Positions 1,824 to 60,145 of a stretch of DNA of 64,000 bases are shown here, one piece after another. Source of the DNA: Candidatus Multivorans sp. (lineage in GTDB: Bacteria > Acidobacteriota > Thermoanaerobaculia > Multivoradales > Multivoraceae); the NCBI GenBank assembly GCA_965247095.1, contig OZ251997.1, forward strand, positions 3,136,001-3,200,000, written 5' to 3'. Each line of letters starts with the position of its first letter. Position 1 is the stretch's first letter. The notes beneath the pieces were generated by a model. The model was not told the DNA's origin. It made no database searches and saw only the letters and a program-made list of their open reading frames with translations. The position numbers and the translations under genes were made by a program.

Positions 1824-2316
1824 AGTTTTCGTGGTGCCGGTCCGTGTTGCCAACCACCGCATCCAGGAGTAGGTATACAGCAAACAGCCGCTTCGTCGTC
1901 TGCAGGTCGCTCGCAGTCAGACGACTCAATAGACCGAGACACTCCCAAATGTTCGCCAGCGTGTGCCGCTTGTAACGAAACCCCGCACACGGATTGTAAG
2001 AGTCCACCGCGATCTCCATTAGCTGGTTGCCATGAACCAGCACCGTTCCAGGCGTCATGAAGGACCTAACGGCCACGCCCCTCTGCCCTTGAAACACGGC
2101 TAAGTCGGCCGTGGCGTGAAGGATTCCCAATGCTGCCGCAACTTCCGCAGCGATCTTCTCGGCCCAATGCTCGCCCGTGCCCTCTCGGGGATACTTGAAC
2201 AGCCACTCGACCTTGGTGCTCGGATCGCGATACCAAAACTTTCTCTTGGTTCCCATGCCCTCCTCGTCCAATACCCAAGCGGGCAGGACGGTGACCACGG
2301 GATAGGGGTCAGCCAT
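1824..2316 (-). pseudogene. HipA-like kinase, interrupted by IS4
   Basis: GMGTKRKFW, WLFKYPREGTGEHWAEKIA and LDAVVGNTDRHHEN motifs; frame runs into the IS IR right after DRHHEN. Confidence 0.8.
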
Positions 2317-4537
2317 TGTCTTCCACGACGACTCGCCGCGCAGCAGTACCCTGGCTGCCCAGCAGCGGCACCCGCTCCACCCCGCCGGAGGGCTCGAAGC
2401 CGAGGATCTGGCCGTAGAAGCTGAGTTCGGCTTCGAGGGCGCGGACGATGTTCTCGGCGCGGCGGAAGCCGTGCTGCTCGCCCGCAAAGAGGAGGTAGGC
2501 GACGGGGACGCCCTTGGCGCGCAGCGCCTCGACCATGGACTCGGCCTGGTTCGGCGGCACGATCCGGTCTTCCGCGCCCTGGAAGAAGATGACCGGGCAG
2601 GAGAAGCCGTCGCGGGTGCTGAGCGGCGAGCGCTCTTCGTAGAGATCGCTCCGCTCAGGGTACGGGCCGACCAGGCGGTCGAGGTAGCGCGACTCGAACT
2701 TGTGGGTGTCGCGGGCGAGGGCCGCGAGGTCGGCGACGCCGTAGTGGCTGGCGCCGGCGGCGAAGGTGTCCCGGAACGCGAGCGCGGCGAGGGTGGTGTA
2801 GCCGCCGGCGCTGCCGCCGCGGATCACGAGCTTCTGCTCGTCGACCTCGCCGCGGGCGGCTAGCCACTCGGCGGCGGCGGCGCAGTCCTCGACGTCGACG
2901 ATCCCCCAGCGGTCGCGCAGGGACTCGCGGTAGGCGCGGCCGTGGCCGGTGCTGCCGCCGTAGTTCACGTCGACCACCGCGAAGCCGCGCGAGGTCCAGT
3001 ACTGCACGCCGGGGTCGTAGGCATGCTCGGCGGCGGAGGTGGGGCCGCCGTGGCTCTTGACGATCAGGGGCGGCTTGGCGCCGGCCGGGGCCTGCTCGTC
3101 GTCGTTCTTCGGCGGGTAGAAGAAGGCGAAGGCGCGGCGGCCGCCGGCGGACGGGAAGTCGATCGGGCGGCCGGCCGAGAGGTAGCGGGGGTCCGGGGCC
3201 GGGCCGGTGGTGGCGAGGACTTCGAGTTCGGGGGCTTCGGGGTTGGTGGAGCGGGCGGCGGAGTCGGCGGCGGCGCCGGCCGCGCTGCCCGGCAGGCGGA
3301 GCCGGACGAGCTCGGCGTGCCGGTCCGGCGCGGCGCCGAGGAAGACGGCGGCGTTAGTGGGTGCGGCGCCTGCCCGCAGCCAGGAGATCGAGGTGTAGGG
3401 GGTGGGGATGGGGACGGGCGGAGGCGCGGCGTCGGTGGCGCCGGCGGGGAGGAAGAGGAGGCGCCAGGCGCCCTGGTCGCAGCAGGCGGCGACGATGCCC
3501 GAGGCGGTGTGGGCGTAGGTGGACATGCCGAAGAGCCAGGGGGGCATGCCGAACTCGGAGTCCCGGGGGTGGAGGGGGTGGATTCGAGGCGGAGGCCGGC
3601 GCTGCGCGCCGCATGCGGGCAGGATGCCCGCGTTCCCAGGGGCGGAGGATGCAGAGGCGGCGGTCCAGGCGGGGTCCAGGCGGTAGAGGTTCCACCAGCC
3701 GCTGCGGTCGGAGACGAAGGTGAGCCGGCCATGGGCGTCGAAGCCGGGTTGCTGGACCGCCTCGGGCGCGGCGGCGTCGCCGCCGGCGACGAGGCGTGGG
3801 GCAACCGGCAGCCCGCTCTCGTCGAGGTCGGCGAGCCGGAGCTCGGTGGCGTCCCAGGGCATGTCGGGGTGGTTCCAGCTCAGCCAGGCGAGCTTCGAGC
3901 CGTCGGGCGAGAGCCGGGGACTGCTGTAGAAATCGGCGCCCGAGACGAGTTCGGTGGGCGGCTGCGGGGCGGTGGACCGGTCGGGCTCGGGCGAGTCGGG
4001 TGCGGGCAGAGGAATCGCGACCAGGGCGGCGATCTCCTCGCCGCCCGCGGGGTCGGGACGCTCCTGGACGGCGATCAGGCGGCGGCGGTGCGGGTCGGGA
4101 GTGAGGTCGGCGTAGTGGGCGCCGTCGGCCGGGGTCAGGGGGATCGGCGGGCCGGCGCCTGCCACGAAGTAGACGCGCTGGTCCTGGAAGTTGACGAAGG
4201 CGTGGGGGAACTCGCGCGCGCCGCTTCGCGGCAGCGCGCCTGGTGCGGGCGAGACGCCCGCGTTCCCAGGGCAGAAGCAGAAGGCGCCGCCGCCGTACTC
4301 GTGGACGCGGCTGCGGACGTCGTAGCCGGCCTGCGTCAGTGTTTCGGTGGCGCCGTTCGGCCGGCGGCAGACGAGCACGTTGCGCCCGCCTTCGTCGGGG
4401 CGCCGCTCGATCCAGCAGACGCAGTCGCCGGCCGCGGCGATGTCGTCGATGCGGCGTGCTCCCTCGGCGACGCCGCGGGCCGAGATCGGCGACGTCCAGG
4501 CGCCGTAGGGGGTCGGCTCGCGGTGGCTCGGCCCCAC
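2309..4537 (-). CDS. S9 family (prolyl oligopeptidase / acylaminoacyl) peptidase carrying REP-derived and low-complexity insertions
   Basis: PYGAWTSPI N-terminus, HGGPT, GGSAGG nucleophile, QGAEDRIVP, EQHGFR; GTG start overlaps the upstream TAG. Confidence 0.9.
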   Translation of the reverse strand: MGPSHREPTPYGAWTSPISARGVAEGARRIDDIAAAGDCVCWIERRPDEGGRNVLVCRRPNGATETLTQAGYDVRSRVHEYGGGAFCFCPGNAGVSPAPGALPRSGAREFPHAFVNFQDQRVYFVAGAGPPIPLTPADGAHYADLTPDPHRRRLIAVQERPDPAGGEEIAALVAIPLPAPDSPEPDRSTAPQPPTELVSGADFYSSPRLSPDGSKLAWLSWNHPDMPWDATELRLADLDESGLPVAPRLVAGGDAAAPEAVQQPGFDAHGRLTFVSDRSGWWNLYRLDPAWTAASASSAPGNAGILPACGAQRRPPPRIHPLHPRDSEFGMPPWLFGMSTYAHTASGIVAACCDQGAWRLLFLPAGATDAAPPPVPIPTPYTSISWLRAGAAPTNAAVFLGAAPDRHAELVRLRLPGSAAGAAADSAARSTNPEAPELEVLATTGPAPDPRYLSAGRPIDFPSAGGRRAFAFFYPPKNDDEQAPAGAKPPLIVKSHGGPTSAAEHAYDPGVQYWTSRGFAVVDVNYGGSTGHGRAYRESLRDRWGIVDVEDCAAAAEWLAARGEVDEQKLVIRGGSAGGYTTLAALAFRDTFAAGASHYGVADLAALARDTHKFESRYLDRLVGPYPERSDLYEERSPLSTRDGFSCPVIFFQGAEDRIVPPNQAESMVEALRAKGVPVAYLLFAGEQHGFRRAENIVRALEAELSFYGQILGFEPSGGVERVPLLGSQGTAARRVVVEDNG
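3613..3640. repeat. REP-like palindrome, in-frame within the S9 peptidase (PGNAGILPA)
   Basis: ATGCGGGCAGGATGCCCGCGTTCCCAGG. Confidence 0.9.
4220..4270. repeat. REP-like palindrome plus GCCGCTTCGCGGC hairpin, in-frame within the S9 peptidase (PGNAGVSPAPGALPRSG)
   Basis: TGCGGGCGAGACGCCCGCGTTCCCAGG at 4244-4270. Confidence 0.9.
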
Positions 4538-6267
4538 TACTTCGGGCCGATGGCCCCGCTCGAGGACAGGATCGCGCCGGTGAGCGGGTCGTAGACGGCG
4601 ATGACGAAGGTGTGCTCCCGGCGGCGGAGTTGGAGGGATGTCTGGTAGGTGAAGTACTGGCCCGGCTGCGGTTCCTGGTTGCCGGCGATGCGGATCTTCT
4701 CCACCGGCGTTTCCGAGCGGCTGCCGTTCTCGTCCATCACCGTGACGCGGAACTCCAGCTCGTTCTGCCACACGCCGGCTACCGGAAGGAGCGCCACTTC
4801 GTCGAGCGGGATCGCGACCTCGACCGGCACAAGCATCTTCCCGCGTCCCCCGCGCTGCGGTTTGCCGAAGCGCACGCCGAGCGGTTTGGCGCTGGGCGGA
4901 TTGCCGAACAGCAGAGAGCCCTCGACCATCATCGTGACCTCGGCGCCGCGCGACATGTCCACATAGCCCTCGCGCGAGCGCACCCTGTACTCCGGGTAAC
5001 CCACCAGCCGCACGTCGATGTCGTGGACCTCGTCGTCCTCGCGCCGCTGCGGCTCGAAGCCGAGCCAGTAGTAGGAGCGGGTGTCCGCCACCACGTCGGC
5101 GAGCGCCGTGTCGCGTCGAGAGTTGATCATCGGCACGCCGCCGGTTGCGTGGGCCAGCAGTTGGAGGGTGCTGTGCTGGAGCAGCTCCCGTTCCTGGAAC
5201 GCGCCGGCGCCCCGGGACGGGTCGCCCGCTGAGTTGCCGTCGATTCCCGCCGACGCACCCAGGGAGAACTGCGGGCGGAATCCCGGCACGTCGACCGGGT
5301 AGAGGGTGTAGCCGATCAGGTTCGCGGCGGAGACGAGGGGGCCGTAGAGGTCGTCCTGGCTCATGAGCCGGGAGTCGGACGAGGCGCCGAGGCTCGCGGC
5401 GACTATGCCGCGATCGGCGATCGTGTAGAGCGCCGGCGATTCGGGCCAGCCGCCCGCAAGCAGGAGCATGACCTTGCGCCCCGGGCGGTTGGCGAAGCTG
5501 CGCAGGGTCGCCACGGCCGCGAGCACGGAGCGCTCCAACTGGCTCTCCAGGTTCGTCGCGTAGCGCAGCTCGGTGCCGCGCAGGCTGTTGCGCAGCACGT
5601 CCTCGGGCAGTTGGACGCCGCCCTCCTCGGCGAACCGGTTGGCGATCGCACGCAGGTTCGCCTGCTCAGTCCGTTCCTGGTCACTCGTGCGCAGCTCGCC
5701 GATGCGCATCAGGCCGAACGTCTTGCGGCGGCGGGCCTGCCGCAGCGCTTCCGACAACTGGCTCGGCGAGTTGGTCCAGGTGGTGAGCATGGCGACCGAC
5801 TTGCCGTCGAAGGCGACGGCCGCCACCCGGTCGGCCGGCCCAAGCTGCGTCAGATCGTCCTCCAGGCGATCGAGCACACGGTCCCGGTCGCGGCCGATGG
5901 AGAAGAAGTCGTCGATGAAGAGGAGGAAGCTCGTGCCCACCGGCGCGTTCGGGTCCAGGTTCGGCACGCCGGCGATGTCGGCGCCCGCCGTCTCCCTGGC
6001 CAGACCCTCCTCGATCTCCGTGAAGTAGTTGATCGGCGTCGGCTCGCCGTCGACCAGGAGTTCGAAGTCCGACGCCTTCAAACCGTGGATGCGGTTGCCC
6101 TGCTTGTCGGTGACCACGACCTCGATGTTCACGACCCGGACGTCGATCACCTCCGAGAACACGGCCGGGAGGTCGTCCTGCTGGGCCGGGACCGGGGCCG
6201 CGGCCGCAAGCAGCACCAGCGCGGCGACAATCCAGGGCACGTCGAATGTTCGTCTGGGCTTCGTCAT
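4537..6267 (-). CDS. Secreted VWA-domain protein (Acidobacterial VWFA-related type)
   Basis: Signal peptide; FSEVIDVRVVNIEVVVTDKQG, PGRKVMLL, LAHATGG, SYYWLGF, VRSREGY; alternative start at 6282. Confidence 0.85.
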   Translation of the reverse strand: MTKPRRTFDVPWIVAALVLLAAAAPVPAQQDDLPAVFSEVIDVRVVNIEVVVTDKQGNRIHGLKASDFELLVDGEPTPINYFTEIEEGLARETAGADIAGVPNLDPNAPVGTSFLLFIDDFFSIGRDRDRVLDRLEDDLTQLGPADRVAAVAFDGKSVAMLTTWTNSPSQLSEALRQARRRKTFGLMRIGELRTSDQERTEQANLRAIANRFAEEGGVQLPEDVLRNSLRGTELRYATNLESQLERSVLAAVATLRSFANRPGRKVMLLLAGGWPESPALYTIADRGIVAASLGASSDSRLMSQDDLYGPLVSAANLIGYTLYPVDVPGFRPQFSLGASAGIDGNSAGDPSRGAGAFQERELLQHSTLQLLAHATGGVPMINSRRDTALADVVADTRSYYWLGFEPQRREDDEVHDIDVRLVGYPEYRVRSREGYVDMSRGAEVTMMVEGSLLFGNPPSAKPLGVRFGKPQRGGRGKMLVPVEVAIPLDEVALLPVAGVWQNELEFRVTVMDENGSRSETPVEKIRIAGNQEPQPGQYFTYQTSLQLRRREHTFVIAVYDPLTGAILSSSGAIGPK

Positions 6268-6458
6268 GGTCTCGGTTTCCAACTTGGTTACTTCTGGTTA
6301 GGTCAGCGGGGGAAGAAGACTATACGGACACGGCCATTGCCGGTGGCAAGGCCTGCTCGGGAGAACCCCGCCGGGCATGGCTCCATTCCGTCTCGGGGGT
6401 GGTCGGGGGTGGTCTGCAATCCTCGACTGCAACTGGAGCCTCGTGCCAACATCGGCAC

Positions 6459-7565
6459 ATGAAGGCCGGCGACATCATCTCGCGGTTCCGGGTCCACGGT
6501 GCGCTTCCCGGCCTGCCGGGCGAGCTGCCGTTGCCGCTGTACCGCGCCCAGGACATCGGCGCCCGGTCGTGGGTGCTGGTTCAGCGCTTCCCCGAGGATG
6601 CGCCGCACGCGGAGGTGGAAGCCGCCGCGGAACGCGCGGAGGCGCTGGCCGCGGCCAAGGGTGAAGAGGGACACGGCTTCCCGCGCCTGGTCGATCGGTC
6701 GTTCGATCCGCCGGCGCTCCTCGCCTGGTCCCTGGGCGGAGGCGAGACGATCCGCCAGCGACTCCAGCGCTCTCCGCTCAGCCCCGAGCAGGCCGCCGAC
6801 ACCGGCCTAGCGCTCGCCCGTGCACTGCGCGATGTGCACCGGGCCGGCGTGGTTCACGGCGGCCTGCGTCCGGCGAACGTCCAACTGCAGGACGGCGGCA
6901 GGCTCGGCCTGCTGGCGCCGTCGAGCCTGGGGCCGGTGACGCTGGCGGTGGCCAGCGAAGCCGCCGAATCGCCGAGCCTGTGGACCGCGGCCTACCTTTC
7001 GCCCGAGCAGATCGACGGGGCGGAGGCGGCGATCACCGGCGCCCCGGTGCAGTTCACGACCGCGGACGACGTGTGGACGTTGGGCGTGGTGCTCTATGAA
7101 CTTGCCACGGGGGAATTACCCTTCCTTGCCAACACCTACGCCGCGATGAGACGCGCCGTCGCCGTCCAGCCCGTGGACCTGGCCGCCACCCTTCCGGGCA
7201 GCGCGCCCGAGGCCTTCGAGGCGGTGTTCGCTGCCGCCCTCGACCGGGACGCGGACCGTCGCCGGGCCGCACTGGACGACGTGATCGGCCGGCTGCGCCA
7301 GGTCAAGGACGAGCTCTTCCCGCGCGTTCGGCCGGCGGTCGACAGCGTGGCCCGTACGCACGCACGCAAGACGGCAGCCGCCACCGATCGTTCCGCCGCC
7401 AGCCCGGCCGACCCCGAGTGGCAATCCGCGATCTCGCGGATCAGAGACCGACGCCGCCGCCTCGCCCGCGAGCGCGCGGCCCCGGCACTGTGGCGCGTGC
7501 TGACCGGTCCGCTGCTGGCGCTGCTGTTGACCGCTGCGGCGGTAGCAGCGTGGCTTTTGCTCTGA
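6459..7565 (+). CDS. Hanks-type Ser/Thr kinase-like protein with C-terminal TM helix (probable pseudokinase)
   Basis: VHGGLRPANV, AYLSPEQ, DVWTLGVVLYELATGELPF; the HRD Asp and DFG are absent. Confidence 0.75.
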   Translation: MKAGDIISRFRVHGALPGLPGELPLPLYRAQDIGARSWVLVQRFPEDAPHAEVEAAAERAEALAAAKGEEGHGFPRLVDRSFDPPALLAWSLGGGETIRQRLQRSPLSPEQAADTGLALARALRDVHRAGVVHGGLRPANVQLQDGGRLGLLAPSSLGPVTLAVASEAAESPSLWTAAYLSPEQIDGAEAAITGAPVQFTTADDVWTLGVVLYELATGELPFLANTYAAMRRAVAVQPVDLAATLPGSAPEAFEAVFAAALDRDADRRRAALDDVIGRLRQVKDELFPRVRPAVDSVARTHARKTAAATDRSAASPADPEWQSAISRIRDRRRRLARERAAPALWRVLTGPLLALLLTAAAVAAWLLL

Positions 7566-7596
7566 GCCGCGACGAATCGGCCCCCGACACCAAAAC

Positions 7597-7621
7597 AAAA
7601 GCGGGCCCGGAGGCCCGCTTT
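7597..7621. terminator. Bidirectional intrinsic terminator
   Basis: AAAA-GCGGGCC-CGGA-GGCCCGC-TTT between convergent genes. Confidence 0.75.
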
Positions 7622-7645
7622 CAGAGAAGTCGCTTGACGCGACGG

Positions 7646-7990
7646 TCAGGCGGCTTCGGCGGCGCTGACAGTCACGGTGACCGTGCCGTCGTCGGCCTTC
7701 ATGGCCTCGCCCGTGACCTTGGCGGCCTTGCCGCCGAGACCCTCGAGGGTCTTGATCGCATCGGCGTCGGAGCCGCCGCGGTCGATCTTGACGACATCGT
7801 CGCCGACCAGGAGACCCATGTCGTTGCCCTTCTCCAGGCAGGTCACGGCGCAGCCGGCATGACCGGCGCCCTTCTGACCGTCCCCGAAGCAGACCATGTC
7901 GAGGACCTCGCCGGTCCAGGTGTCACCAGCCAGCGCCGGGGCGCCGACCATCAACGAAAGAGCCAGAACCGCAAATAGTGCCTTCTTCAT
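7646..7990 (-). CDS. Small secreted protein with DxxC...HxxCAxxC motif
   Basis: SD GGAGG; signal peptide MKKALF...PALA; Cys/His cluster. Confidence 0.8.
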   Translation of the reverse strand: MKKALFAVLALSLMVGAPALAGDTWTGEVLDMVCFGDGQKGAGHAGCAVTCLEKGNDMGLLVGDDVVKIDRGGSDADAIKTLEGLGGKAAKVTGEAMKADDGTVTVTVSAAEAA

Positions 7991-8081
7991 GCCAAATCCT
8001 CCAGTTGCCTCTCGTTGTTTCGAGGCGGGGGGTAGTTGTCAGTTGTGCTGGACAGGCTAGCACAGCAGAGAGGGGGCAAGG

Positions 8082-8123
8082 GGCTCGGGCTCGCCGCTTC
8101 GCGGCATCGCGCTTGATGCGGGC
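8082..8123. repeat. Intergenic hairpin/REP module, 41/42 identical to the coding copy at 11727-11768
   Basis: GGCTCGGGCTCGCCGCTTCGCGGCATCGC(G/A)CTTGATGCGGGC. Confidence 0.85.
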
Positions 8124-8188
8124 CGGAAGGCCGGCGCCGCTTTGAACGGCCAGCCGAGGCCCAGCCCCCTATGCCATAGTCCGCGGCC

Positions 8189-9865
8189 ATGATCCAGTTG
8201 AACCGCTATTCCGCTCGCATCACTCAGGACAAGTCCCAGGGGGCGTCGCAGGCGATGCTCTACGGGGCCGGCCTGACGCCCGAGGACATGGCGAAGCCGC
8301 AGGTCGGGATCGCCAGCGTCTGGTACGAGGGCAACACTTGCAACATGCACCTCCTGGAGCTCGCCGCGGCGGCCAAGGAGGGCGTCGACGGGACGGGTTG
8401 CCTGGGCCTGCGGTTCAACACGGTCGGGGTCTCGGACGGCATCTCGATGGGTACGGACGGGATGAGCTACTCGCTCCAGTCGCGGGATCTGATCGCCGAC
8501 TCGATCGAGACGGTGATGGCGGCGCAGTGGTACGACGCGAACATCTCGATCCCCGGCTGCGACAAGAACATGCCCGGCTGCATGATGGCGATCGCGCGGC
8601 TCGACCGCCCGTCGCTCGTGATCTACGGCGGCACGATCCGGTCCGGCGAGTTTCGCGGCGCCAAGATCGACATCATCTCCGCCTTTCAGAGCTACGGCGA
8701 GGCGATCAGCGGCGCCCTGAGCGAGGAGGACCGCCAACGAATCGTCCGCCGCGCCTGCCCCGGCGCCGGCGCCTGCGGCGGCATGTACACCGCGAACACG
8801 ATGGCGGCGGCGATCGAGGCGCTCGGCATGTCCCTGCCCTACAGCTCGTCGACGCCCGCCGTAGCGGACGAGAAGCTGGAGGAATGCCGCCGCGCCGGCG
8901 CCGCGGTGAAGAACCTGCTCGAACGGGACATCCGGCCGAGCGCGATCATGACCCGCGCGGCGTTCGAGAACGCGATGGTGCTGATCACCGTGCTCGGCGG
9001 CTCGACGAACGCGGTTCTCCACCTGCTGGCGATCGCCCATTCGGCGTGCGTCGACCTTTCGATCGACGATTTCCAGAAGGTCAGCGACCGGATTCCCTTC
9101 CTGGCCGACCTGAAGCCATCGGGCCGTTACCTGATGGAGGACCTGCACGATGTCGGCGGCACCCCGGCCGTGCTGCGGATGCTGCTCGACCGGGGGCTGA
9201 TCGACGGCGACTGCCTGACCGTCACCGGCCGCACGCTGGCCGAGAACCTGGCCTCGCTGCCGGATCTCGCCGCGGGGCAGGATGTCGTGCTGCCCTTCGA
9301 CGAACCGATCAAGTCCACCGGCCACCTCCAGATCCTGCGCGGCAACCTGGCCCCCGAGGGCGCGGTGGCGAAGATCACCGGCAAGGAGGGTGAGCAGTTC
9401 GCCGGTCCGGCCCAGGTCTACGACTCGGAGGAGGCGATGGTCGAGGCGCTCGAGCGCGGCGAGATCCGCGCCGGTTCGGTGATCGTCATCCGCTTCGAGG
9501 GCCCGAAGGGCGGTCCGGGCATGCCCGAGATGCTCAAGCCGACCTCGGCGCTGATGGGCGCCGGCCTCGGCGACCAGGTGGCGCTGGTCACCGACGGCCG
9601 CTTCTCGGGGGGCTCCCACGGCTTCCTGATCGGCCACGTGGCGCCCGAGGCCCAGGAGGGCGGCCCGCTCGCCCTGGTGAGCGACGGCGACCGGATCGAG
9701 ATCGACGGCGTGCGCAACACGATCGACGTGGCGCTCGACGAGGCCGAGCTGGAGGCCCGAAGGAAAGCCTGGGAGGCGCCGCCGCTCAAGGCGAAGCGGG
9801 GCACGCTGCACCGCTACATCAAGACCGTGAGTTCCGCGTCGACCGGCTGCATCACCGACGGCTGA
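8189..9865 (+). CDS. ilvD: Dihydroxy-acid dehydratase
   Basis: [50 protein letters not shown]. Confidence 0.97.
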
Positions 9866-10883
9866 GCCCCTCCGTGACGCCGATGGCGCTTTCGAACGGG
9901 TACTGGACCCCCATCCGCCGGCGGACCTCGTCCATCAGTTCGAGCAGGGCGATCGATTCGGCGTGGGGCAGCAAGGGGCTCTCGAGTGCGCCTTCGCCCA
10001 GGAGACGTTCGACCTCCAGGGCCTGGTACTCGTAACCGTTGGCGAGGAAGGCGAACTCAGCGGTCGCAGCGCGGCGGGCGCCGCGGTGGAGCACTGCGCG
10101 CTGGGCGCGCCAGAACCGGGGGATCTCGATGCGGCCTTCGGTGCCCTCGATCACGGCGGTGTGATCGGTGTGGCGGCTGACGGAGCTTTCGAGGTGCGCC
10201 TCGGCGCCGGAGGGGAACCGCAGGGTCATGTTGCAGTGCTGGTCGACACCTGTCGGTGCGAGTTCCGCCTCGACCTCGAGTTCCGGGGCTTCGGGGCCGA
10301 TCACCGCCTGGCCGAAGACGAGTGTGGCGAGCGAGAGGGTGTAGCAGCCGATGTCGAGCATACTGCCGCCCGCGAGTTCGGGGGCGTAGAGCCGGCTCTT
10401 CGGATCGAACGGGGCCTCGAAACCGAAGGAGCAGGCGAGGCGCCGGGGTTCGCCGATCGCGCCCTCGGCCAGCCAGCGCGCGACGTGGCGGGTCGCCGGC
10501 AGAAAGCGGCTCCACATGGCCTCCATGAGCAGAACGCCGTGCTCCCGGGCGATGCGGCACATCGCACGGGCCTCCGAGGCGTTAACGGTGAGCGGCTTCT
10601 CGCACAGGACCGCCTTGCTCTGCCGGAGCGCCAGCGCCGCGTGCTCCAGATGGCCGGGATGGGGCGTGGCGACGTAGACGGCATCGACCGCCTCGCTACG
10701 CGCGAGCTCGCGGTAGGTCCCCGCCTCGGCGGCGGCGTAACCGCGCTCGGCATTGAAGGCGCGGGCGCGATCCGGGTCGCGGCTGCCGGTGGCGGTCACG
10801 TCGTGACCGTCCAGCGCATCGATGGCGGTGGCGAAGGAGCGCGCGATGGCGCCGGGACCGAGGATGCCCCAACGAACGGCCAC
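9852..10883 (-). CDS. Gfo/Idh/MocA family oxidoreductase
   Basis: [36 protein letters not shown]; GTG start inferred. Confidence 0.9.
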
Positions 10884-10885
10884 GG

Positions 10886-12973
10886 CTACACCTGCCCCCG
10901 CAGCGCCTGGAGGACCAGGTCCCGGGCGCGGCGCGGCTCGTAGATGAACACCCGGCGCACCTTCGGCCCGACCTGATAGCGGAACCGCGCGAGCCGCCCG
11001 GCGAGGCCGCTGTGCGGCCGCGCGACGGTCAGCGCGTAGTGCGCTCTCGAGCGGCCGGCGCCCTCCGCCAGGCGGCGCAGCTCGTCCGGGGACAGTTGGC
11101 TCCAGTTCACGCAGGGACCGAGGGGGGCGACCAGATCGCCGCCGTAGGGGCGGACGGATTCGACCTGGAAGCCGGTGCGGATCAGGCGACCCAGGTCGCG
11201 GGAACGGATGGCGTGGGCGCAATCGCCCGCGGTCGGTGGCAGCGGCAGCCGGTCGAATCGTCGGGCCGCGGCCGGGAGACGGCGGAAGGCCGCCGCGGCG
11301 GCGGCGCCGGCGCGGCCGTTCCACTGGTGCCGGGCCGGACCGACGTAGTCGTCCACGATCAGCCGGCCGCCGGGTTCGAGGGCCTCGAGCACGGCGATGA
11401 GGAGGCGCTCGAGCCGCAGGTGGGCGGAGAATCCGCCGATGCAGCAGACCGCCTGGTAGGCGGCCGGGGGGAGTGCGGGGCGGCGGGGGTCGAGGATGAG
11501 GCGCCGGATGGCGGCGGATGCGGGCGAGACGCCCGCGTTCCCAGGAGAGGCGGCGATGTCGACATGCGCGGCGAAGCCGGTGCGGAGGAACTCGGCGGCC
11601 CAGGTGTCGTCGCCGACGAGGAGGACGCGGTCGAAGGGGTCGGCGGGGGCGTGCTCGGCGATCCACTCGCCCGGGGCGGGGCCGGCGGCGGCGGCGCGGA
11701 CGGGGGCGGGGAGGCCCCATGCGGGCGGCTCGGGCTCGCCGCTTCGCGGCATCGCACTTGATGCGGGCGAGACGCCCGCGTTCCCAGGTCCGGATGCGGG
11801 CGAGGCGGACACGAGCCCAGGAGATGCGGGCGAAGCGGGCACGACCCCAGCGGTCCCGGGGCCGGGGCCGAGTTGTTCGAGGCGTTCTTCGACCTGCTCT
11901 CGCCACTGGAGGCGGAAGTACAGGGCGTGCTTGCGTTCGGAGCAGGTGCGGCAGGTGCCGCACGGGTTGCCGGTGCGCAGGCCGTCGGTGATCGAGGAAA
12001 GAAGCGGCGAGCGCTCGACTTCGGCGAGCGTCGTCTCGGGGTAGAGGCCGATCGGCTGCTCTTCCCAGAAGATGCACGGCGAGACGGCGCCGTTCGGCCG
12101 CACGACCACGGTGTGGCGGGGCCAGGCGCAACCGCCGACCGCGGTCCGGACGCGGCCGCGCAGGCGGCGGCGATCGTAGAGCCCGGCGCGCCAGCGCAGC
12201 AGGTGGCCGCGGAGCCCGATCGCGGCGCCGTCGTCGAAGTCGGGGTAGGAGACGAGCCGGAGGCCCCGGGCGGCCGCGTCTTCGGCGGCCGCGGCCAGCT
12301 CGGCCCGCAGGGCGCCCGGATCCTCACCGTCGAGGAGTTCGTCCTCGGCGGTGACGTGGGCGGTCGGCGCGACGAACCGGACGTCGAGCTCACTGGCGCC
12401 GACTTCTTCGGCGAAGCGCGGCAGATCGGCGAGGTCGGCGCGGTTCGTCTGCATCCACACGAAGATCAGCCGCAGGCGGGTGGCGGCGCCACGCCGCACG
12501 TCGTTCAGAAGATCGAGAGAGCGCATCAGCCGGGCGAACGTGGCGCCGACCCGGATCGTCTCGTAGGTCTCGGCGTGGGTGCCGTCCATCGACACGCCGA
12601 CCGTCTTGACCCCCGCCTCGCAGATCGCCTCCGCCTTGGGCGGGGTGAGCGGCAGCAGGTTGGTGGGGAACCAGAGGTCCGGAATGCCGTAGCTCCCCGC
12701 CTCGCGCATGATGTCGATGAACTTCGGGTGAACCAGGGGCTCGGCGGCGCATCCGAGAGCGACCCGGTGGGCGCGCGGGAAGAGGTCGGCCGCGACCTGG
12801 CCGAAGGTCTCGAGCGGCATCATGCCGGTGCGCGACAGGTTCCGGTCGAAGGGCAGGAACTGCAGCCGGTCGACCGCGGAGAAGTAGCACATCTTGCACT
12901 TCAGGTTGCAGCGCTCGGTGGTGTCGAGGATGACCTCGAGCGGTCGGCGACGGAAGGGGGAGGTGGGGGTCAC
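10886..12973 (-). CDS. Radical SAM/SPASM-like protein fused through a REP-derived linker to a degenerate class I methyltransferase-like domain
   Basis: CNLKCKMC, CAWP...SPC...CGTCRTC; C-terminal LEPGGRLIVDDYVGP; GTG start at 12973 inferred. Confidence 0.8.
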   Translation of the reverse strand: MTPTSPFRRRPLEVILDTTERCNLKCKMCYFSAVDRLQFLPFDRNLSRTGMMPLETFGQVAADLFPRAHRVALGCAAEPLVHPKFIDIMREAGSYGIPDLWFPTNLLPLTPPKAEAICEAGVKTVGVSMDGTHAETYETIRVGATFARLMRSLDLLNDVRRGAATRLRLIFVWMQTNRADLADLPRFAEEVGASELDVRFVAPTAHVTAEDELLDGEDPGALRAELAAAAEDAAARGLRLVSYPDFDDGAAIGLRGHLLRWRAGLYDRRRLRGRVRTAVGGCAWPRHTVVVRPNGAVSPCIFWEEQPIGLYPETTLAEVERSPLLSSITDGLRTGNPCGTCRTCSERKHALYFRLQWREQVEERLEQLGPGPGTAGVVPASPASPGLVSASPASGPGNAGVSPASSAMPRSGEPEPPAWGLPAPVRAAAAGPAPGEWIAEHAPADPFDRVLLVGDDTWAAEFLRTGFAAHVDIAASPGNAGVSPASAAIRRLILDPRRPALPPAAYQAVCCIGGFSAHLRLERLLIAVLEALEPGGRLIVDDYVGPARHQWNGRAGAAAAAAFRRLPAAARRFDRLPLPPTAGDCAHAIRSRDLGRLIRTGFQVESVRPYGGDLVAPLGPCVNWSQLSPDELRRLAEGAGRSRAHYALTVARPHSGLAGRLARFRYQVGPKVRRVFIYEPRRARDLVLQALRGQV
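11517..11545. repeat. REP-like palindrome, in-frame in the methyltransferase-like domain (PGNAGVSPAS)
   Basis: GATGCGGGCGAGACGCCCGCGTTCCCAGG. Confidence 0.9.
11727..11860. repeat. Tandem REP cluster (hairpin module, one intact copy and about two degenerate copies) forming an interdomain linker
   Basis: GATGCGGGCGA recurs at about 11760, 11793 and 11823; encodes PGTAGVVPASPASPGLVSASPASGPGNAGVSPASSAMPRSGEPEP. Confidence 0.85.
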
Positions 12974-12977
12974 GATG

Positions 12978-14213
12978 TCAGAGGCGGATTCCGCCTGCGG
13001 CGGATGCGGGCAAGATGCCCGCGTTCCCAGGGCCGGAGGGGGGAGCGGGCCACGACAGGGCCGCCAGCATTGCCGCGCACACGCCGCGGCCGGAACTCCT
13101 TTGGCGCCACACGGCGGCGATGCTAACCGGATCGCGCTCGCCACGGCGCCACGCGGCCTGCTCCGCCGCGATCGCATGGGCCAGGGGACCGGCACGGTGG
13201 GCGGATGAAACCCGGCCGTAGGCGCCGTCTTCGGACCAGCTCCGGAGGCTCGGAATGGGCGTGCCGACGATCGTCGCGCCCACGGAGAGCGCCTCGCAAC
13301 CGGCGTGGGGGGCGCCCTCCCAACGCGAGGAGAAGACGATGGAGCGGCTGCCGGCGAGCGCCTCGGCCAGCACCGGCGGGTGCTGAGGACCGCGGTAGAC
13401 GACCCCAGGGAACCGCCCGCACAGTTCCCGGAAGTGCTCTTCGCCGCCGGCGCCGAAGATGTGGACCGGTTGTTCCTCCTCGTCGCCGGCGGCGGCGAGA
13501 TAGCGGGTCAGCGCCGCAGCCAACAGAGGCGCGTTCTTCTGGGGGTCGTCCCAGCGGCCGACCGCCACCAGGCCGCGGCGCTCCCGTTCGAGGTCGGGAA
13601 ACTCGCAGAAGACCCTGTTGATCGCGAGCGGCGCCACGTGGACCCGTTCGGCGTGGTCGCCGGCGCCGGCCTTGCGCAGGAAGCGGCGGAAGTGGTCGCG
13701 CGACTCCGCGTTGCCCAGGATCAGCACGTCGGAGAACCTGGCGCTACGCAGGAACTCGGCGTCCTGCGGATCCCGGCGCTGGAACGAGCGCAGGTAGCGA
13801 AGCCCGAGCCTGGCCAACTGCCGGCGGCGCCGGCGCCGGTCGGAGGTTCCGGCATAGACCGTCCGTCTCATCGTCGCGAGCGGAAAGGCCCGCAACCCCA
13901 TCTGCCCGTCCGAGTCCCCCATGGCGATCGTGCGCACACCGATACCCACCAGCAACTCGAGCAGGCCGGACATCTGGTGGAAGGAGGGCAGGATCGCGAC
14001 GGTGACCTTGAGATCGAGCCAGAACTCCCGGTTCGCCAGCCCCTCGCCGAGCGGCGGGCAGAAGGTCGGCACGGGGAAGCCGTCGTCAGAGGACTGAGGG
14101 CAGACAACGAATGCCTCGTGGCCGAGCTCTTCCAGGCCGCGGATGTACTCCTCGAACCGGAACGAGCACTGGCTCAGGGGCGTGCCGTGGTTCCAGACAA
14201 CGGCGATCCGCAT
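12978..14213 (-). CDS. Glycosyltransferase, GT4/GT-B type
   Basis: VAVGRWDDPQKN, SSRWEGAPHAGCEALSVG (ExxxxxxxE motif). Confidence 0.85.
   Translation of the reverse strand: MRIAVVWNHGTPLSQCSFRFEEYIRGLEELGHEAFVVCPQSSDDGFPVPTFCPPLGEGLANREFWLDLKVTVAILPSFHQMSGLLELLVGIGVRTIAMGDSDGQMGLRAFPLATMRRTVYAGTSDRRRRRRQLARLGLRYLRSFQRRDPQDAEFLRSARFSDVLILGNAESRDHFRRFLRKAGAGDHAERVHVAPLAINRVFCEFPDLERERRGLVAVGRWDDPQKNAPLLAAALTRYLAAAGDEEEQPVHIFGAGGEEHFRELCGRFPGVVYRGPQHPPVLAEALAGSRSIVFSSRWEGAPHAGCEALSVGATIVGTPIPSLRSWSEDGAYGRVSSAHRAGPLAHAIAAEQAAWRRGERDPVSIAAVWRQRSSGRGVCAAMLAALSWPAPPSGPGNAGILPASAAGGIRL
13003..13031. repeat. REP-like palindrome, in-frame in the glycosyltransferase C-terminal tail (PGNAGILPAS)
   Basis: GATGCGGGCAAGATGCCCGCGTTCCCAGG. 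Confidence 0.9.
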
Positions 14214-14268
14214 GATGCGCGACGCTACAGGACGGGAGCGGGGAGGGGAACGTGTCGCTGAGTGGGCT

Positions 14269-15866
14269 TCAGTCGCACCTGAAGGCCATGGTGTCGATCC
14301 CGGTCGCTGCCTTCTCACCCTGCCGGTTGTAGTGGCTCCAATAGTGCCCGTTGCCGTCTGTGACGTACAGATTGAAGGCCACGTCAGTGACCGGGCCCAC
14401 GAAGACCCAGCGGTGACCGTTGAGGTGGCATCCGTCGAGCACCTTGATCAGGACCTCCGCGTTGCCGCGGCTGAAGAACCAGAGCAGACCCGACTCGGAC
14501 GAGGCCCAGATGCCGGACTTCGCCTCACCGACCTCGCCAGCCGGCGTCTCGTAGCACATGTGCACCTCGTAGCCCCCGTCGAAAACGAGCGGCGTGGTCT
14601 CCGGACGGCAACTCGTATATCCAGGTCCCGTCGGCGGGTCGGGATACGGATCGCGCGGAACCGGATACAGATAGCGCACGGCGTCGCGGTCATCGCTGTT
14701 GAGCGCGGCGCCGCGGCCGTCGCCGTGGACCCTCGCGCGCATCAGCGCCTGGGCGGTCACGGCGTCACAGGAGCCGCTGGCGCGATCGCCGCAAGAGTGG
14801 GATATTCCCAACACATGGCCGAGCTCGTGGGCCATGACTTCCTCGTGGGCCTTGCGCGGATTCGAGTTCGAACTCACCCACTCCTGGTAGCCGTCCTGGG
14901 TGGTCACGTTCGACTCGACGATCGCGAGCGCCTCGTCCGATTCGTTGCCCGGAATCCTGTGCGGCGGGGCGGAGCCGTCGCAGTAGAAGAAGGTGTAGGT
15001 GATCGCGATCACGCCGCCACCGCCACGTTCGTAGGACCCTGGAATCTCGTCGAACGGATCCTCGTAGGAGATCGAGTTCACGCCGTCGACATCGTCGATC
15101 AGGAACTCCTTGCTCGATGTGCCCTCAAGGACCAGGTTCACACGGCTCTCGGGATCGTTGTTCCAGGCCCGGATGGCGGTGCGCACCTCGAACAGGCCGC
15201 CGCCGGGCACCCCCGGCTGACCGCTCGCCTGGACGGTCACGCCGACGCTCTCGCCGCGGTCGAACTCTCGCCACCGGATCGGCAGGCCGTCGTGGAGGCA
15301 CGACGCGGGACTCCGGGTCACCCGGAACGGCTCGGCGACCGCGAGGGGCCCGTCCGGCCAGCCGGCGTCGAAGTAGTCGGCCGGCCGCTCGACACCCGCC
15401 GCGCGGTCCGCGATCCAGCGGCGAAAACGGGCCGCGTCGCGCGGTCGGCGGCTTCGGGCTCGGAGCAGTACGCGTTCCCCCACCCGGACCTCGAAGAACA
15501 GGCCCAGGGCGAACTCGACCGGGCGGTAGGCATCGTCCACCGGATCGAGGAAGAGCAAGACCCGGTCCCCCTCGGCCAGCATGGGCAGGCCGAGGATCTT
15601 CATCGCCACGCCGTCCGGGCCTACGCCGCCCGGCTGGCGAACGAGGATCGTGCCGCCCGGCACGAAGCCCTTCAGCACCTCCGCGACCTCGACCGCGTAG
15701 TCCCGGACCGGCCGGCGTCCCGCGAATGCCGGCGTAACGGACCGAACCTCGCCGAACACGATCACCTGGGAACGCTCGACCATCGACTCGTCGGTCGGCA
15801 GGACGTAGACGATCGCCGCCGCCGGAGGCGCACAGATGGACACCGCGAGCAGCAGCGCAACTGGAA

Positions 15867-15879
<13 letters not shown>
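14269..15879 (-). CDS. Secreted metzincin-type Zn metalloprotease with C-terminal WFF/KVLDGC domain
   Basis: Signal peptide; HELGHVLGISH and Met-turn ALMRA; C-terminal LLWFFSRGNAEVLIKVLDGC. Confidence 0.85.
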
Positions 15880-17078
<1,199 letters not shown>

Positions 17079-26881: not shown

Positions 26882-26910
26882 GATGCGGGCGAGACGCCCG
26901 CGGTCCCAGG
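26882..26910. repeat. Intergenic REP-like palindrome
   Basis: GATGCGGGCGAGACGCCCGCGGTCCCAGG. Confidence 0.85.
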
Positions 26911-29078: not shown

Positions 29079-29227
29079 GAGACTGCGCGGCAGAACGACC
29101 GGAGGCCGGCGCTTCGCGCCGGATGCCCGCGTTCCCAGGTCAGATCGTTCTACCGCGAAGCTTTGCATGGAACAAGCCATGTTTCCTGTGCGTCAGCGCG
29201 GCGCGGACGCCGCGACTCGACTCCTAG
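29075..29227. repeat. CTAG-flanked modular hairpin mosaic filling the entire pdxJ-glmM intergenic space
   Basis: CTAG at 29075-29078 and 29224-29227; module A at 29085-29157 (ends CGCGGCAGAAC / GTTCTACCGCG); module B at 29163-29227 is the reverse complement of 36992-37055 except for a 1-nt indel. Confidence 0.85.
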
Positions 29228-36991: not shown

Positions 36992-37208
36992 CTAGGAGTC
37001 GAGTCGCGGCGTCCGCGCCGCGCTGACGCACAGGAACATGGCTTGTTCCATGCAAGTACCCACAGCGGTATCGCTGCGCTGTCGCGCAGGGAACGACGCG
37101 GCGTCCGGATGCGGGCAGGATGCCCGCGTTCCCAGGAGCTTGTTCCATGCAAGCGTGCGCCACAGAACATGGGGGGTATGCCGATCTCCGTGCCGCGCAC
37201 GCTGCTAG
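36992..37208. repeat. CTAG-flanked modular mosaic (module B, REP, module A-like) ending at the rpmG stop
   Basis: CTAG at 36992 and 37205; REP at 37108-37136; GCTTGTTCCATGCAA twice (37041, 37138). Confidence 0.8.
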
Positions 37209-55375: not shown

Positions 55376-55528
55376 GCGCGGCAGAACGATCCGACCTGGG
55401 AACCCGGGTGGCGCGATCCGCGCCACCCGCGAACCACTCCGTGCGCCCGTCATCGGGCGGACGGAGGGCACGCGGGCATCCCGCCCGCATCCGGCGCGAA
55501 GCGCCGGCCTCCGGTAGTTCTGCCGCGC
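55376..55528. repeat. 153-bp MITE/REPIN-like element (module A) with 12-bp TIR
   Basis: GCGCGGCAGAAC / GTTCTGCCGCGC; inverted near-copy of 60015-60145. Confidence 0.85.
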
Positions 55529-60014: not shown

Positions 60015-60145
60015 CCGGCGCTTCGCGCCGGATGCGGGCAGGATGCCCGCGTGCCATCCGTGCGCCCGATGACGGGCGCACGGAGTGGTTCGCGGGTGCC
60101 GCGGATCGCGCCACCCGGGTTCCCAGGTCAGATCGTTCTACCGGG
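60015..60145. repeat. Module A MITE/REPIN-like copy overlapping the RND permease stop codon
   Basis: REP core split by a 68-bp hairpin insert; right end GATCGTTCTACC contains the minus-strand TAG at 60138-60140. Confidence 0.82.

Follow-up and report, generated by a model that had tools for sequence, protein, structure and literature searches.

The 64-kb window (64,000 nt, the whole stretch of DNA analyzed, from Candidatus Multivorans, Acidobacteriota) contains three minus-strand genes with copies of a short, GC-rich hairpin element inside their reading frames. These genes encode an S9 peptidase of the prolyl oligopeptidase family, a radical SAM/SPASM protein fused to a methyltransferase-like domain (rSAM/MTase-like), and a GT4-type glycosyltransferase (Table 1). 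Further copies lie between genes. The core of the element, GCGGGC-N5-GCCCGCGTTCCCAGG, occurs eight times in the window, against none expected. As a 29-nt pattern allowing up to three mismatches, it gives eight matches, on the plus strand only (0.00 expected from shuffles of the window): four are exact (11517, 11760, 13003 and 37108), three have one mismatch (3612, 4242 and 26882) and one has three (29111). The 15-mer GCCCGCGTTCCCAGG, with up to two mismatches, is matched 11 times vs. 0.67 expected.

A first-pass annotation of this DNA had listed five intact coding copies in three ORFs. Five copies are indeed found in three minus-strand ORFs, at 11517, 11760 and 13003 as listed, but only three of the five are exact; the two in the S9 gene deviate in the first three bases and begin at 3612 and 4242, one or two bases from the 3613 and 4244 given. 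Its intergenic copies at 26882 and 37108 hold, but the match at 29111 is an internally truncated copy, and those placed at 55470 and 60031 belong to composites of ~125 nt, in which ~62 nt of other hairpins part the GGGAAC tail from the hairpin. The composite at 55.4 kb, the sole window copy on the opposite strand, folds with −57.8 kcal/mol (z −6.4).

The element is made up of a 9-nt tail and a hairpin whose 6-bp GC stem closes a 5-nt loop; a second, variable GC hairpin is usually present as well. Its ends, given for the host-gene sense strand, are CCTGGGAAC (the tail) and ATCC(GG). The first hairpin is present in all seven window copies that were folded, and the 45-nt unit is open in all six frames, as had been noted for the core. 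Only 6 of the 61 listed Multivorans copies match the strict second-hairpin pattern of the 45-nt form; hence, the unit length is not fixed, and translated units measure 27, 33, 45 or 66 nt. The only doublet in the window is the degenerate dimer at 4205-4270 (−30 kcal/mol, z −3.8, outer stem GGGAAC/GTTCCC), the remaining copies being singlets. Longer palindromes enclose some copies, as at 29055-29185 in the window and in locus L010. The sister family B has a different first hairpin and the same GAA-loop hairpin as the REP element; within S9 orthologs, it encodes GAPAFWPAS..PRSGEPE. Next to the copy at 26882, the receiver domain of the sigma-54 response regulator begins at residue 77 of the extended ORF, and the coding signal of this gene begins ~60 nt away from the copy.

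Table 1. Host genes and repeat copies in the window.
Feature	Position	Strand	Remarks
S9 (prolyl oligopeptidase family) peptidase gene, two inserts	2309..4537	-	ORF; PF00326 E 3e-49
45-nt REP unit, S9 site 2	3596..3640	-	tail, 6-bp stem/5-nt loop, second hairpin; read PGNAGILPACGAQRR
66-nt dimer-like REP, S9 site 1	4205..4270	-	core, GAA-loop hairpin, degenerate inverted tail GTTCCCC; read PGNAGVSPAPGALPRSGAREFP
Sister-family B unit, intergenic	8084..8143	-	upstream of ilvD; families D7, D9, D11
Radical SAM/SPASM + methyltransferase-like fusion gene, two inserts, REP-derived linker	10886..12973	-	ORF; Pfam Radical_SAM + SPASM
REP core, exact	11517..11545	-	inside methyltransferase-like domain after HVDIA; read PGNAGVSPA(S)
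REP core + GCCGC-GAA-GCGGC hairpin, interdomain linker	11729..11788	-	read PGNAGVSPASSAMPRSGEPEP; family D7
Two degenerate tandem REP-derived units	11789..11870	-	PGTAGVVPAS.., PGLVSASPASG; family D1, 72% copies
GT4-type glycosyltransferase ORF	12978..14318	-	PF13692 E 6e-11 (Glyco_trans_1_4)
REP core, exact, then second hairpin	13003..13031	-	read PGNAGILPA, last 19 residues of GT4
REP core, intergenic	26882..26910	-	1 mismatch; upstream of sigma-54 response-regulator gene, antisense to gene
Truncated REP (tail, half stem, second hairpin)	29106..29139	-	centre of longer palindrome; between convergent genes
REP core, intergenic, exact	37108..37136	-	close to tRNA-Asp; a 16-nt motif directly repeated on either side
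Composite variant, intergenic	55395..55507	+	tail, ~62 nt with two other hairpins, hairpin 1, hairpin 2
Composite variant, second copy, intergenic	60015..60127	-	between DUF885 and AcrB-type genes

Inserts in the host proteins

In the S9 ORF, GC3 stays at ~0.9 in a single frame over the whole length, before and after the inserts; the ORF corresponds to a database protein of 742 aa (P0001). Residues S576, D657 and H689, the putative catalytic triad, are invariant across 68 aligned orthologs. The copy at 3612 reads PGNAGILPA, and that at 4242, PGNAGVSPA. Both the site 1 dimer and the site 2 unit are missing from the closest orthologs (P0002-4); the site 2 unit is found in P0005. At site 1, the distance from anchor to anchor is 11 aa in all 24 distant orthologs and 11-67 aa in 89 close ones, while site 2 spans 11-83 aa in 94 close orthologs. 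In the nearest solved homolog, PDB 7c72, the alignment breaks at site 2 (query 286-320 vs. chain 304-313), and site 1 falls in a 15-aa gap. As the closest orthologs lack the inserts and the distant orthologs and 7c72 have short turns in their place, the comparison supports the view, already held in the first-pass annotation, that the coding copies are insertions and not ancestral sequence. Both sites are hot spots, shared by three repeat families, A (PGNAG), B (GAPAFWPAS) and C.

In the rSAM/MTase-like gene, GC3 periodicity of ~0.9 holds one frame across the ORF, being weaker at 11600-11900. The methyltransferase label comes from a weak PF13489 match below cut-off (E 0.031). The copy at 11517 is kept in 11 of 11 orthologs (P0241-251), with a tandem duplicate in P0242 and P0246. 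That at 11760 reads PGNAGVSPA in the interdomain linker. The orthologs hold two to three tandem units. One 33-nt unit (11789-11821), present in the window and missing from OZ250177, is the sole large difference in an otherwise near-identical DNA alignment, and this indel likewise speaks for insertion. The linker is built from tandem REP-derived units, in keeping with the earlier proposal that the element builds loops and linkers. The REPs enlarged a pre-existing linker, however, and did not create the fusion: P0255 is fused with a REP-free linker. Distant homologs encode the radical SAM and C-terminal-domain proteins separately.

The GT4 gene probably starts later than its ORF, near 14213, and its product matches PimA weakly in the PDB. 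The copy at 13003 lies inside the ORF, as had been reported, but 23 nt ahead of its TGA, and forms a C-terminal tail rather than an internal loop. It was not picked by the automatic coding criterion and is counted as coding by its ORF only. An overlapping extension of the rSAM ORF reads this copy as LGTRASCPH, but in a stretch that precedes the likely rSAM start (12973).

The hairpins may never reach the proteins at all, if the host ORFs were pseudogenes or artefacts of high GC, or if the hairpins were bypassed in, or cut out of, the message. Spurious long ORFs do arise in high-GC DNA (the window has 215 ORFs of at least 100 aa), and in a relative 95-98% identical (P0253/P0254), a frameshift within the REP array splits the rSAM/MTase-like gene. 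Such an explanation is nevertheless very improbable: GC3 periodicity stays in one frame across the inserts, S576, D657 and H689 are invariant, Pfam domains are recognized, the orthologs are full length, and the bias in frame and orientation reported below, which untranslated copies do not show, would be puzzling if the in-gene copies were not read. The in-gene copies are probably translated.

The persistence of some inserts could also reflect co-option, the hairpin being useful in mRNA or DNA (for pausing, for transcript stability or as a binding site) or PGNAG being useful as a loop. The two rSAM/MTase-like copies are found in 11 of 11 orthologs, down to ~60% local identity, the same two S9 loops are filled by three families in many lineages, and the core is constant beside divergent transposases (see below). 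Co-option is nonetheless improbable, as the closest S9 orthologs manage without inserts, copy number varies freely and the host proteins are unrelated to each other.

Distribution and transposase linkage

A sequence scan found at least 139 unique exact copies of the core in at least 126 loci. By their record titles, the matches listed come from ~10 phyla, with Acidobacteriota, Gammaproteobacteria, Planctomycetota, Verrucomicrobiota and Chloroflexota among them; Binatia, Myxococcota, Gemmatimonadota, Armatimonadota and others also occur, and closed chromosomes represent at least four of these groups. Among the matches listed, the Multivorans copies are mainly intergenic and in either orientation, and the gene gaps that hold copies are convergent in 12 cases vs. 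divergent in 4. Coding signal on both sides was detected for 5 of the 61 listed Multivorans copies and for none of the listed Gammaproteobacteria copies. REPIN-like inverted doublets are present in loci L015, L019 and L067 (Gammaproteobacteria, Thermoanaerobaculia), with folding energies of −47 to −58 kcal/mol and z scores of −7.8 to −9.1.

A Y1 transposase adjoins the core in 3 of the 126 listed loci. Inverted copies stand on both sides of the gene in L066 and L039 (Chloroflexota), and one copy lies directly upstream of it in L118 (Gemmatimonadales), a locus too short to show the far side. The protein is a REP-associated tyrosine transposase (RAYT), with PF01797 at E 3e-7 and 84.7 bits to the NCBIfam model of that name (cut-off 80). 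REP-coded peptides were seen at protein ends in 21 of the best 120 of 1577 RAYT homologs. The element is hence a REP-type sequence, highly repeated and mostly extragenic; the doublets and the RAYT linkage in other genomes bear out its earlier description as a REP-like selfish hairpin family. MITEs carry the terminal inverted repeats of a parent IS and a target-site duplication; for this element, no parent IS was identified. No RAYT gene turned up in the window (as noted before), in the Multivorans loci sampled or, from this genus, among the best 120 of the 1577 homologs, so that present mobility in the genus is no more than putative. Beside RAYT proteins of different phyla, which by eye share less than half of their residues, all 21 specified core bases agree.

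Reading frame and orientation of translated copies

The first-pass annotation had stated that coding copies always read PGNAG(V/I)(S/L)PA. This is true for all five in the window, but not everywhere: locus L011 in Multivorans reads LGTRAS, and two Gemmatimonadales ORFs read LGTRAS and AGETPAIPG. In a census that samples the matches listed and is not genome-wide, 11 of 13 independent translated Multivorans copies (different genes or sites) are in the PGNAG frame, one is in the LGTRAS frame and one in the reverse mirror frame (binomial p = 1.5e-7 against an expectation of 1/6). The inserts in L001, L036, L009 and L053 are flanked by Pfam domains, which marks their host genes as real. As a control, untranslated Multivorans copies up to 150 nt after a stop were taken from the same matches; only 3 of 37 share the PGNAG phase and orientation (Fisher p = 6.6e-7), the phase being counted relative to the finished ORF, so that insertion inside codons is outside its measure. 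These gene-adjacent copies are evenly split in orientation (19 vs. 18), with 3, 6 and 10 copies in the three phases. The uncharged PGNAG peptide has many Pro, Gly, Asn, Ala and Ser residues; the other frames have many Arg, His, Cys and Trp. The contrast between 11/13 and 3/37 supports a filter that acts on the peptide of translated copies, probably by selection, as had been proposed.

A mutational origin of the bias is the least improbable of the alternatives, though still unlikely. The element would then enter GC3-rich codons at a phase-biased target, and copies would be born in the PGNAG frame with little selection on the peptide. Four copies in C-terminal tails (L009, L053 and L114 in other genomes, and 13003 in the window) are all PGNAG although weak constraint is expected there, which hints at some contribution other than peptide selection, and a C precedes the element in 8 of 11 translated copies, read by eye. 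A preference for C at −1 could, however, shift the phases modestly at most. Around the 61 listed Multivorans copies, the flanks show neither a conserved duplication nor a strong conserved target; the untranslated copies have no excess of the PGNAG phase or of one orientation, and the other frames do occur, in Gemmatimonadales and L011.

The preferred reading, with a probability of roughly 80%, is that of a RAYT-family REP whose in-frame copies are filtered for the PGNAG peptide in permissive sites. Y1 HUH transposases of the RAYT type would mobilize the family, to which the presence or absence of copies among orthologs and the 33-nt indel point indirectly, and single, dimeric or tandem units would sometimes land in or beside coding sequence. 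Such an insertion would add 9-22 residues and, with no stop in six frames, need not break the gene. Purifying selection would purge most alleles with inserts. The survivors would occupy beta-hairpin turns in the S9 propeller, one loop of the methyltransferase-like domain, linkers between domains and C-terminal tails, and would be read in the single frame that gives the uncharged PGNAG..PA peptide. Later tandem expansion and contraction of the copies would leave these loops hypervariable between species.

Relation to known elements

REP/REPIN-RAYT systems comprise the E. coli REP with TnpA-REP and the Pseudomonas REPINs. The element resembles them in its short GC-rich hairpin, its conserved unpaired tail, its many mostly extragenic copies, their preference for the 3' ends of genes, with more convergent than divergent gaps, and, in other genomes, the inverted doublets and a Y1 HUH transposase gene between inverted copies (L066, L039). 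It differs in Multivorans, where most copies are singlets with an unrelated second hairpin behind them, and where neither the window nor the loci sampled yielded a RAYT.

Rickettsia palindromic elements (RPEs) were reportedly found in-frame within genes by Ogata in 2000 and 2002. They are AT-rich and ~100-150 bp long and, to our knowledge, occur in Rickettsia only and lack a known transposase. The present element shares with them the in-frame position in unrelated genes and the one conserved peptide (PGNAG..PA in 11 of the 13 listed translated copies), and the analogy drawn earlier is apt. In contrast to RPEs, its units are GC-rich and only 27-66 nt long, RAYT-linked, mostly intergenic and found in Acidobacteriota and other phyla. 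Its size and its hosts outside Rickettsia exclude a true RPE, although it works like one. In excerpts of PMC10969869 and PMC3733652, palindromic RPEs are described in-frame in unrelated, still functional genes, with a conserved peptide per family.

Intragenic REPs of the GTAG and CGTC superfamilies are described in excerpts of Di Nocera et al. 2013 (PMC3733652) from Opitutus terrae, Thauera and R. conorii. These singlets, dimers and clusters encode 20-82 aa, often at protein termini, and are argued there to be flexible linkers or loops. The copies reported here are likewise singlets, dimers and clusters inside ORFs, but of another REP family and in another host phylum; those excerpts contain neither statistics on frame or orientation nor an untranslated control. 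The element does not belong to either superfamily as characterized in those excerpts, as its ends, CCTGGGAAC and ATCC(GG), carry no GTAG or CGTC tetranucleotide. The same excerpts describe TIRtrons (TIRYT), RAYT-like genes between non-GTAG inverted repeats, with one Acidobacteria group; some of their repeats form moderately abundant families, dimers or clusters. A RAYT-like transposase flanked by non-GTAG repeats is a common feature, but the quoted motif, GGGGWSAS, misfits the tail of the element in a comparison by description only.

In-frame palindromic inserts have been described before, as RPEs and as intragenic GTAG/CGTC REPs; the element family is new. With it, the phenomenon reaches free-living Acidobacteriota, beyond Rickettsia and the few REP-rich Proteobacteria and Verrucomicrobia. 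Translated and untranslated copies of one element within one genus form a natural experiment on the conversion of selfish DNA into protein sequence; the strong filter on the translated copies alone fits selection on the peptide.

In excerpts of PMC5581495, REPIN-RAYT systems are described as mainly vertically inherited, a lineage-bound picture with which a core identical across ~10 phyla sits uneasily. A speculative extension is a single REP/RAYT superfamily with a near-invariant core, which in ~10 phyla of GC-rich soil bacteria would be a general supplier of loops, linkers and tails, permissive loops being recolonized by successive repeat families. If so, the six stop-free frames and a near-ideal turn peptide (P-G-N-A-G) could account for the repeated colonization of permissive loops, the two S9 propeller turns among them, it would become directly measurable how fast and by what rules selfish DNA drives the evolution of protein loops, and the vertical view of REPIN-RAYT systems would be called into question. 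For annotation, PGNAG..PA, GAPAFWPAS and PRSGE stretches and their Arg-rich alternative readings in "hypothetical proteins" are to be taken as repeat-derived; such stretches account for length variation between orthologs and for frameshift-prone spots in high-GC MAGs.

Copies of the repeat in the window

The full 29-nt pattern of the repeat matches the 64-kb window eight times with at most three mismatches, always on the plus strand, against 0.00 matches expected from shuffled sequences. Its 15-mer, GCCCGCGTTCCCAGG, is found 11 times with at most two mismatches (0.67 expected). The repeat pattern noticed inside ORFs in the first-pass annotation is thus real, and five copies read PGNAG(V/I)(S/L)PA (see table). 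Three tRNAs were the sole matches in the Rfam scan of the window, and no family covers the repeat.

The window has a G+C content of 62–74% and contains 215 ORFs of at least 100 amino acids. As high G+C makes long spurious ORFs abundant, coding was judged by third-position G+C (GC3). The S9 peptidase region (2301–4550) keeps a single phase, with GC3 values of 0.88–0.99, unbroken through both copies. A single GC3 phase is also seen in the rSAM/methyltransferase-like ORF (10850–12950), with a dip confined to 11600–11900, and the phase of GT4 is kept over 13100–14300. In Pfam, the hosts match Peptidase_S9, Radical_SAM plus SPASM, and Glyco_trans_1_4; for the C-terminal "methyltransferase" domain of the fusion, the sole match is PF13489, which is sub-threshold (E 0.031). 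All five copies described as coding are within ORFs, with one correction: the GT4 copy, because of its closeness to the stop codon, is a C-terminal tail.

Copies of the repeat within ORFs of the window
Host	Position	Reading	Peptide	Remark
S9 peptidase	3612	minus strand	PGNAGILPA	
S9 peptidase	4242	minus strand	PGNAGVSPA	
rSAM/methyltransferase-like fusion	11517	minus strand	PGNAGVSPA	
rSAM/methyltransferase-like fusion	11760	minus strand	PGNAGVSPA	
GT4	13003	minus strand	PGNAGILPA	23 nt before GT4 stop

The intergenic copies differ in part from their earlier description. The copy at 29111 is truncated, and those placed at 55470 and 60031 are composite palindromes of ~125 nt in inverse orientations (55381–55525 and 60015–60140), the one at 55.4 kb lying on the opposite strand. 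In these composites, the REP tail is separated from hairpin 1 by two extra, nested hairpins (~62 nt), and the whole is bordered by short inverted flanks, GCAGAAC../..GTTCTGC. The composite folds at −57.8 kcal/mol (z −6.4) and resembles one element inserted into another. A 16-nt motif, CTTGCATGGAACAAGC, occurs three times (29162–29177, 37041–37056, 37138–37153; 0.01 expected), each time beside a REP, and two direct copies of it enclose ~80 nt with the REP at 37108. This motif may represent a target duplication, or else a small repeat of its own.

Read along the sense strand of its hosts, the unit comprises the tail CCTGGGAAC and a 6-bp GC stem with a 5-nt loop, after which comes ATCC(GG). A second GC hairpin is usually present and differs from copy to copy: a strict pattern for that of the 45-nt form fits 6 of the 61 Multivorans copies among the matches listed, which rules out a constant unit length of 45 nt. 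Diverged copies were brought in by fuzzy matching. Translated units have lengths of 27 nt (the 9-aa units repeated in tandem in P0248, an ortholog of the fusion), 33 nt (an indel that distinguishes the window from OZ250177), 45 nt (3596–3640) or 66 nt (4205–4270); the last is dimer-like, with an outer stem GGGAAC/GTTCCC and a fold z of −3.8. As had been claimed for the core, the unit is stop-free: all six frames of the 45-nt form are open. A sister family, "B", at 8084–8143 and 36907–36955, has a different first hairpin and the same GCCGC-GAA-GCGGC hairpin.

Other repetitions were seen in the window. An IS-type transposase gene (526–1740; DDE_Tnp_1 and DUF4372) adjoins the S9 gene, and a 300-nt part of it is repeated with 83% identity (1–300 vs. 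1245–1544). Three adjacent ORFs at 14269–19789 have repeated segments in common (72–84% identity); the two that were scanned gave weak matrixin-type (M10) metalloprotease matches, one of them also fibronectin type III. A 12-nt tandem repeat lies at 16237–16308. Tandem paralogous genes of ~470 aa at 41697–43163 and 43443–44882, in which 300 nt are 94% identical, match no Pfam family.

Reading frame of translated copies

Copies were classed by flanking GC3 and open frames. The set with coding sequence on both sides comprises exact copies and those found by fuzzy matching, which also took in the window. Here, the PGNAG frame is used by the four S9 and fusion copies of the window and by three loci of other genomes: L001, in an SNF2 helicase (insert between its two lobes), L036, in an FG-GAP repeat protein, and L098. 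The LGTRAS frame is used by one copy with one mismatch, L011. Two copies of L095 were left out, as they are orthologous to those of the window. Three further copies are read through from the upstream gene as C-terminal tails, all in the PGNAG frame: L009 (CoA-transferase III), L053 (PALP-fold enzyme) and L114. The reverse "mirror" frame, AGETPAFPG, is read in L100, uncertainly because this locus is short. These hosts were named by Pfam, which gave no match for L098, L100 and L114. The GT4 copy, missed by the automatic coding criterion, was counted as well, giving a total of 11 PGNAG, one LGTRAS and one reverse reading in the sampled loci and the window.

As a control, Multivorans copies at most 150 nt downstream of the stop codon of a well-supported gene were taken: 19 have the orientation of that gene (phases 3, 6 and 10 copies) and 18 the opposite one. 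The PGNAG phase and orientation are found in 11 of 13 translated vs. 3 of 37 control copies (Fisher's exact p = 6.6e-7). Orientation alone also separates the two sets (p = 0.009), as does phase among co-oriented copies (p = 8.8e-5), and a binomial comparison with 1/6 for the PGNAG frame gives p = 1.5e-7. The very difference from untranslated copies argues for translation of those within genes. Basic residues are fewest in the PGNAG reading, which is also the richest in Pro, Gly, Ala, Ser and Asn. Seven closed chromosomes display local clusters of copies and no replichore pattern, which speaks against the replication strand as the cause of the orientation.

The earlier statement that coding copies always read PGNAG hence holds for 11 of 13 translated copies and fails for L011, perhaps for L100, and for the Gemmatimonadales ORFs. 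In the latter (L116 and L117), ORFs with a DPPY-type motif beside a RAYT gene read the dimer as LGTRAS.. and then AGETPAIPG; they have no Pfam match.

With these corrections, the contrast supports the earlier idea of a selfish hairpin filtered for a tolerated peptide. A RAYT-type repeat, mostly intergenic, would on landing in a gene add 9–22 residues and no stop; the insert would persist at loop-tolerant places of the protein when read as a small, uncharged turn-former, and copy number would vary after insertion. Some room is left for a bias in the phase of insertion instead of selection, since the C-terminal tails are also all in the PGNAG frame. For the filtered hairpin, transposition in Multivorans is the proposed mechanism. 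The wider interest lies in a controlled frame filter, and in a repeat core common to several phyla.

Inserts in the S9 peptidase and the rSAM/methyltransferase-like fusion

For the S9 peptidase, 91 of the 120 listed relatives were aligned, and both insert sites were measured in all 120. At site 1 (4205–4270), distant orthologs (44–51% identity) have an anchor-to-anchor distance of 11 aa in 24 of 24 cases and none of the repeat families. In close orthologs (n = 89), this distance is 11–67 aa, near the minimum in 37; the PGNAG family (A) is present in four and family B (GAPAFWPAS..PRSGEPE) is far commoner, in 34. At site 2 (3596–3640; n = 94), the range is 11–83 aa, with family A in seven close orthologs, B in 24 and C in 16. 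Family C, a third, longer and putative repeat family, is a ~45-aa insert (WVRGSSDPLPPEAAS...SGSEDPRTQ) in the site 2 loop, seen among P0040–P0074.

The closest relatives of the S9 protein (P0002–P0004) carry neither insert and P0005 carries the second one alone; as expected for inserted sequence, the peptides are absent from the distant orthologs at site 1. Judged by these sequence comparisons, the in-gene copies are insertions. Alignment to the nearest solved structure, 7c72 (E 5.5e-124), leaves a gap of 15 residues at site 1 and is broken at site 2; from the ortholog gaps and this alignment, the inserts would lie in surface loops. S576, D657 and H689, invariant in 68 aligned S9 sequences, probably form the catalytic triad.

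In the fusion, both copies are kept in 11 of 11 close orthologs, some of which have two or three tandem units. The window contains one extra, degenerate 33-nt unit in comparison with the otherwise nearly identical DNA of OZ250177. With the linker (residues 385–430) as query, 11 orthologs of the same fusion and nothing else were recovered among 307 candidates: this motif is too short to score for a database-scale frame census by protein search. More distant homologs are separate proteins, either radical-SAM (~350–375 aa) or C-terminal-domain proteins (~280–320 aa). A creation of the fusion by the REPs was considered and rejected, as P0255, a 70% identical relative, is fused with a repeat-free linker; the repeats hence lengthened a pre-existing linker.

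In a 95–98% identical relative (P0253/P0254), the fusion gene is split by a frameshift within the repeat array: three PGNAG units are followed by the reading LGTRASRPH, and a separate ORF starts from an ATG inside the GAA-loop hairpin. The shift may be genuine, or it may stem from a long-read indel or assembly error in the array.

Known systems, spread of the core and the RAYT link

In-frame palindromic inserts, the RPEs of Rickettsia, are said to have been described by Ogata in 2000 and 2002. Such inserts are presented as established for RPEs (PMC10969869, PMC3733652) and, in the accessible text of PMC3733652, for the GTAG/CGTC REPs of Opitutus terrae, Thauera and others; its authors favour flexible linkers or loops and warn of N-terminal misannotation. 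The insertion of palindromes in frame is therefore already known, and the Multivorans-type REP family adds to it. Unlike the GTAG/CGTC REPs, as described there with a GTAG or CGTC tag tetranucleotide, the Multivorans-type element has neither. Judged by description, it may be closer to the TIRtron/TIRYT class of the same text, which includes an Acidobacteria group. In the literature covered (few of the subscription journals, and PMC3733652 without its supplements), no paper was found on this family, its peptides (PGNAG etc.) or its 12-nt core, nor any translated-vs.-untranslated frame test for such repeats.

Scanning species-representative genomes for the core gave at least 126 loci and at least 139 unique copies. 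Ca. Multivorans (Acidobacteriota, class Thermoanaerobaculia), with genomes encoding proteins 84–86% identical to the S9 protein of the window, has the largest share, with 61 copies among the matches listed. Others are in records titled Gammaproteobacteria, Planctomycetota, Verrucomicrobiota, Chloroflexota, Binatia, Myxococcota, Gemmatimonadota, Armatimonadota and others; closed chromosomes with the core include Gammaproteobacteria, Chloroflexota and Binatia. Inverted doublets in Gammaproteobacteria and Thermoanaerobaculia loci form perfect ~30-bp stems (z −7.8 to −9.1), which is the REPIN arrangement.

In three of the 126 loci listed (L039, L066, L118), the core is directly followed by a gene matching PF01797. 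The gene beside the core passes the NCBIfam equivalog "REP-associated tyrosine transposase" (84.7 bits, cut-off 80), its database homologs bear the source name RayT, and in L066 and L039 it is flanked on either side by inverted core copies. Among the best 120 of 1577 homologs, the predicted termini of 21 contain peptides from this repeat superfamily, and none of the 120 was recognised as a Multivorans RAYT. No RAYT was found in the Multivorans loci of the core scan or, in agreement with the first-pass annotation, in the window.

RAYT groups of wide taxonomic range, possibly transferred horizontally over long times, are discussed in PMC5581495, and published abstracts present REPIN-RAYT systems as mostly vertically inherited. 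A plasmid vector for spread across phyla was rejected: in 72,556 plasmids, RAYT identity did not exceed 34%, and the REP had no significant match. Across genomes labelled as ~10 phyla, closed chromosomes included, the 21 specified core bases are identical (L001–L126). The RAYTs beside the core in two phyla (L066 and L118) are well under half identical, as judged by eye. On a Gemmatimonadales contig (JBDIWC010000042, ~17.8–21.2 kb; L115–L118), a stretch of 3.4 kb beside a RAYT holds four exact copies.
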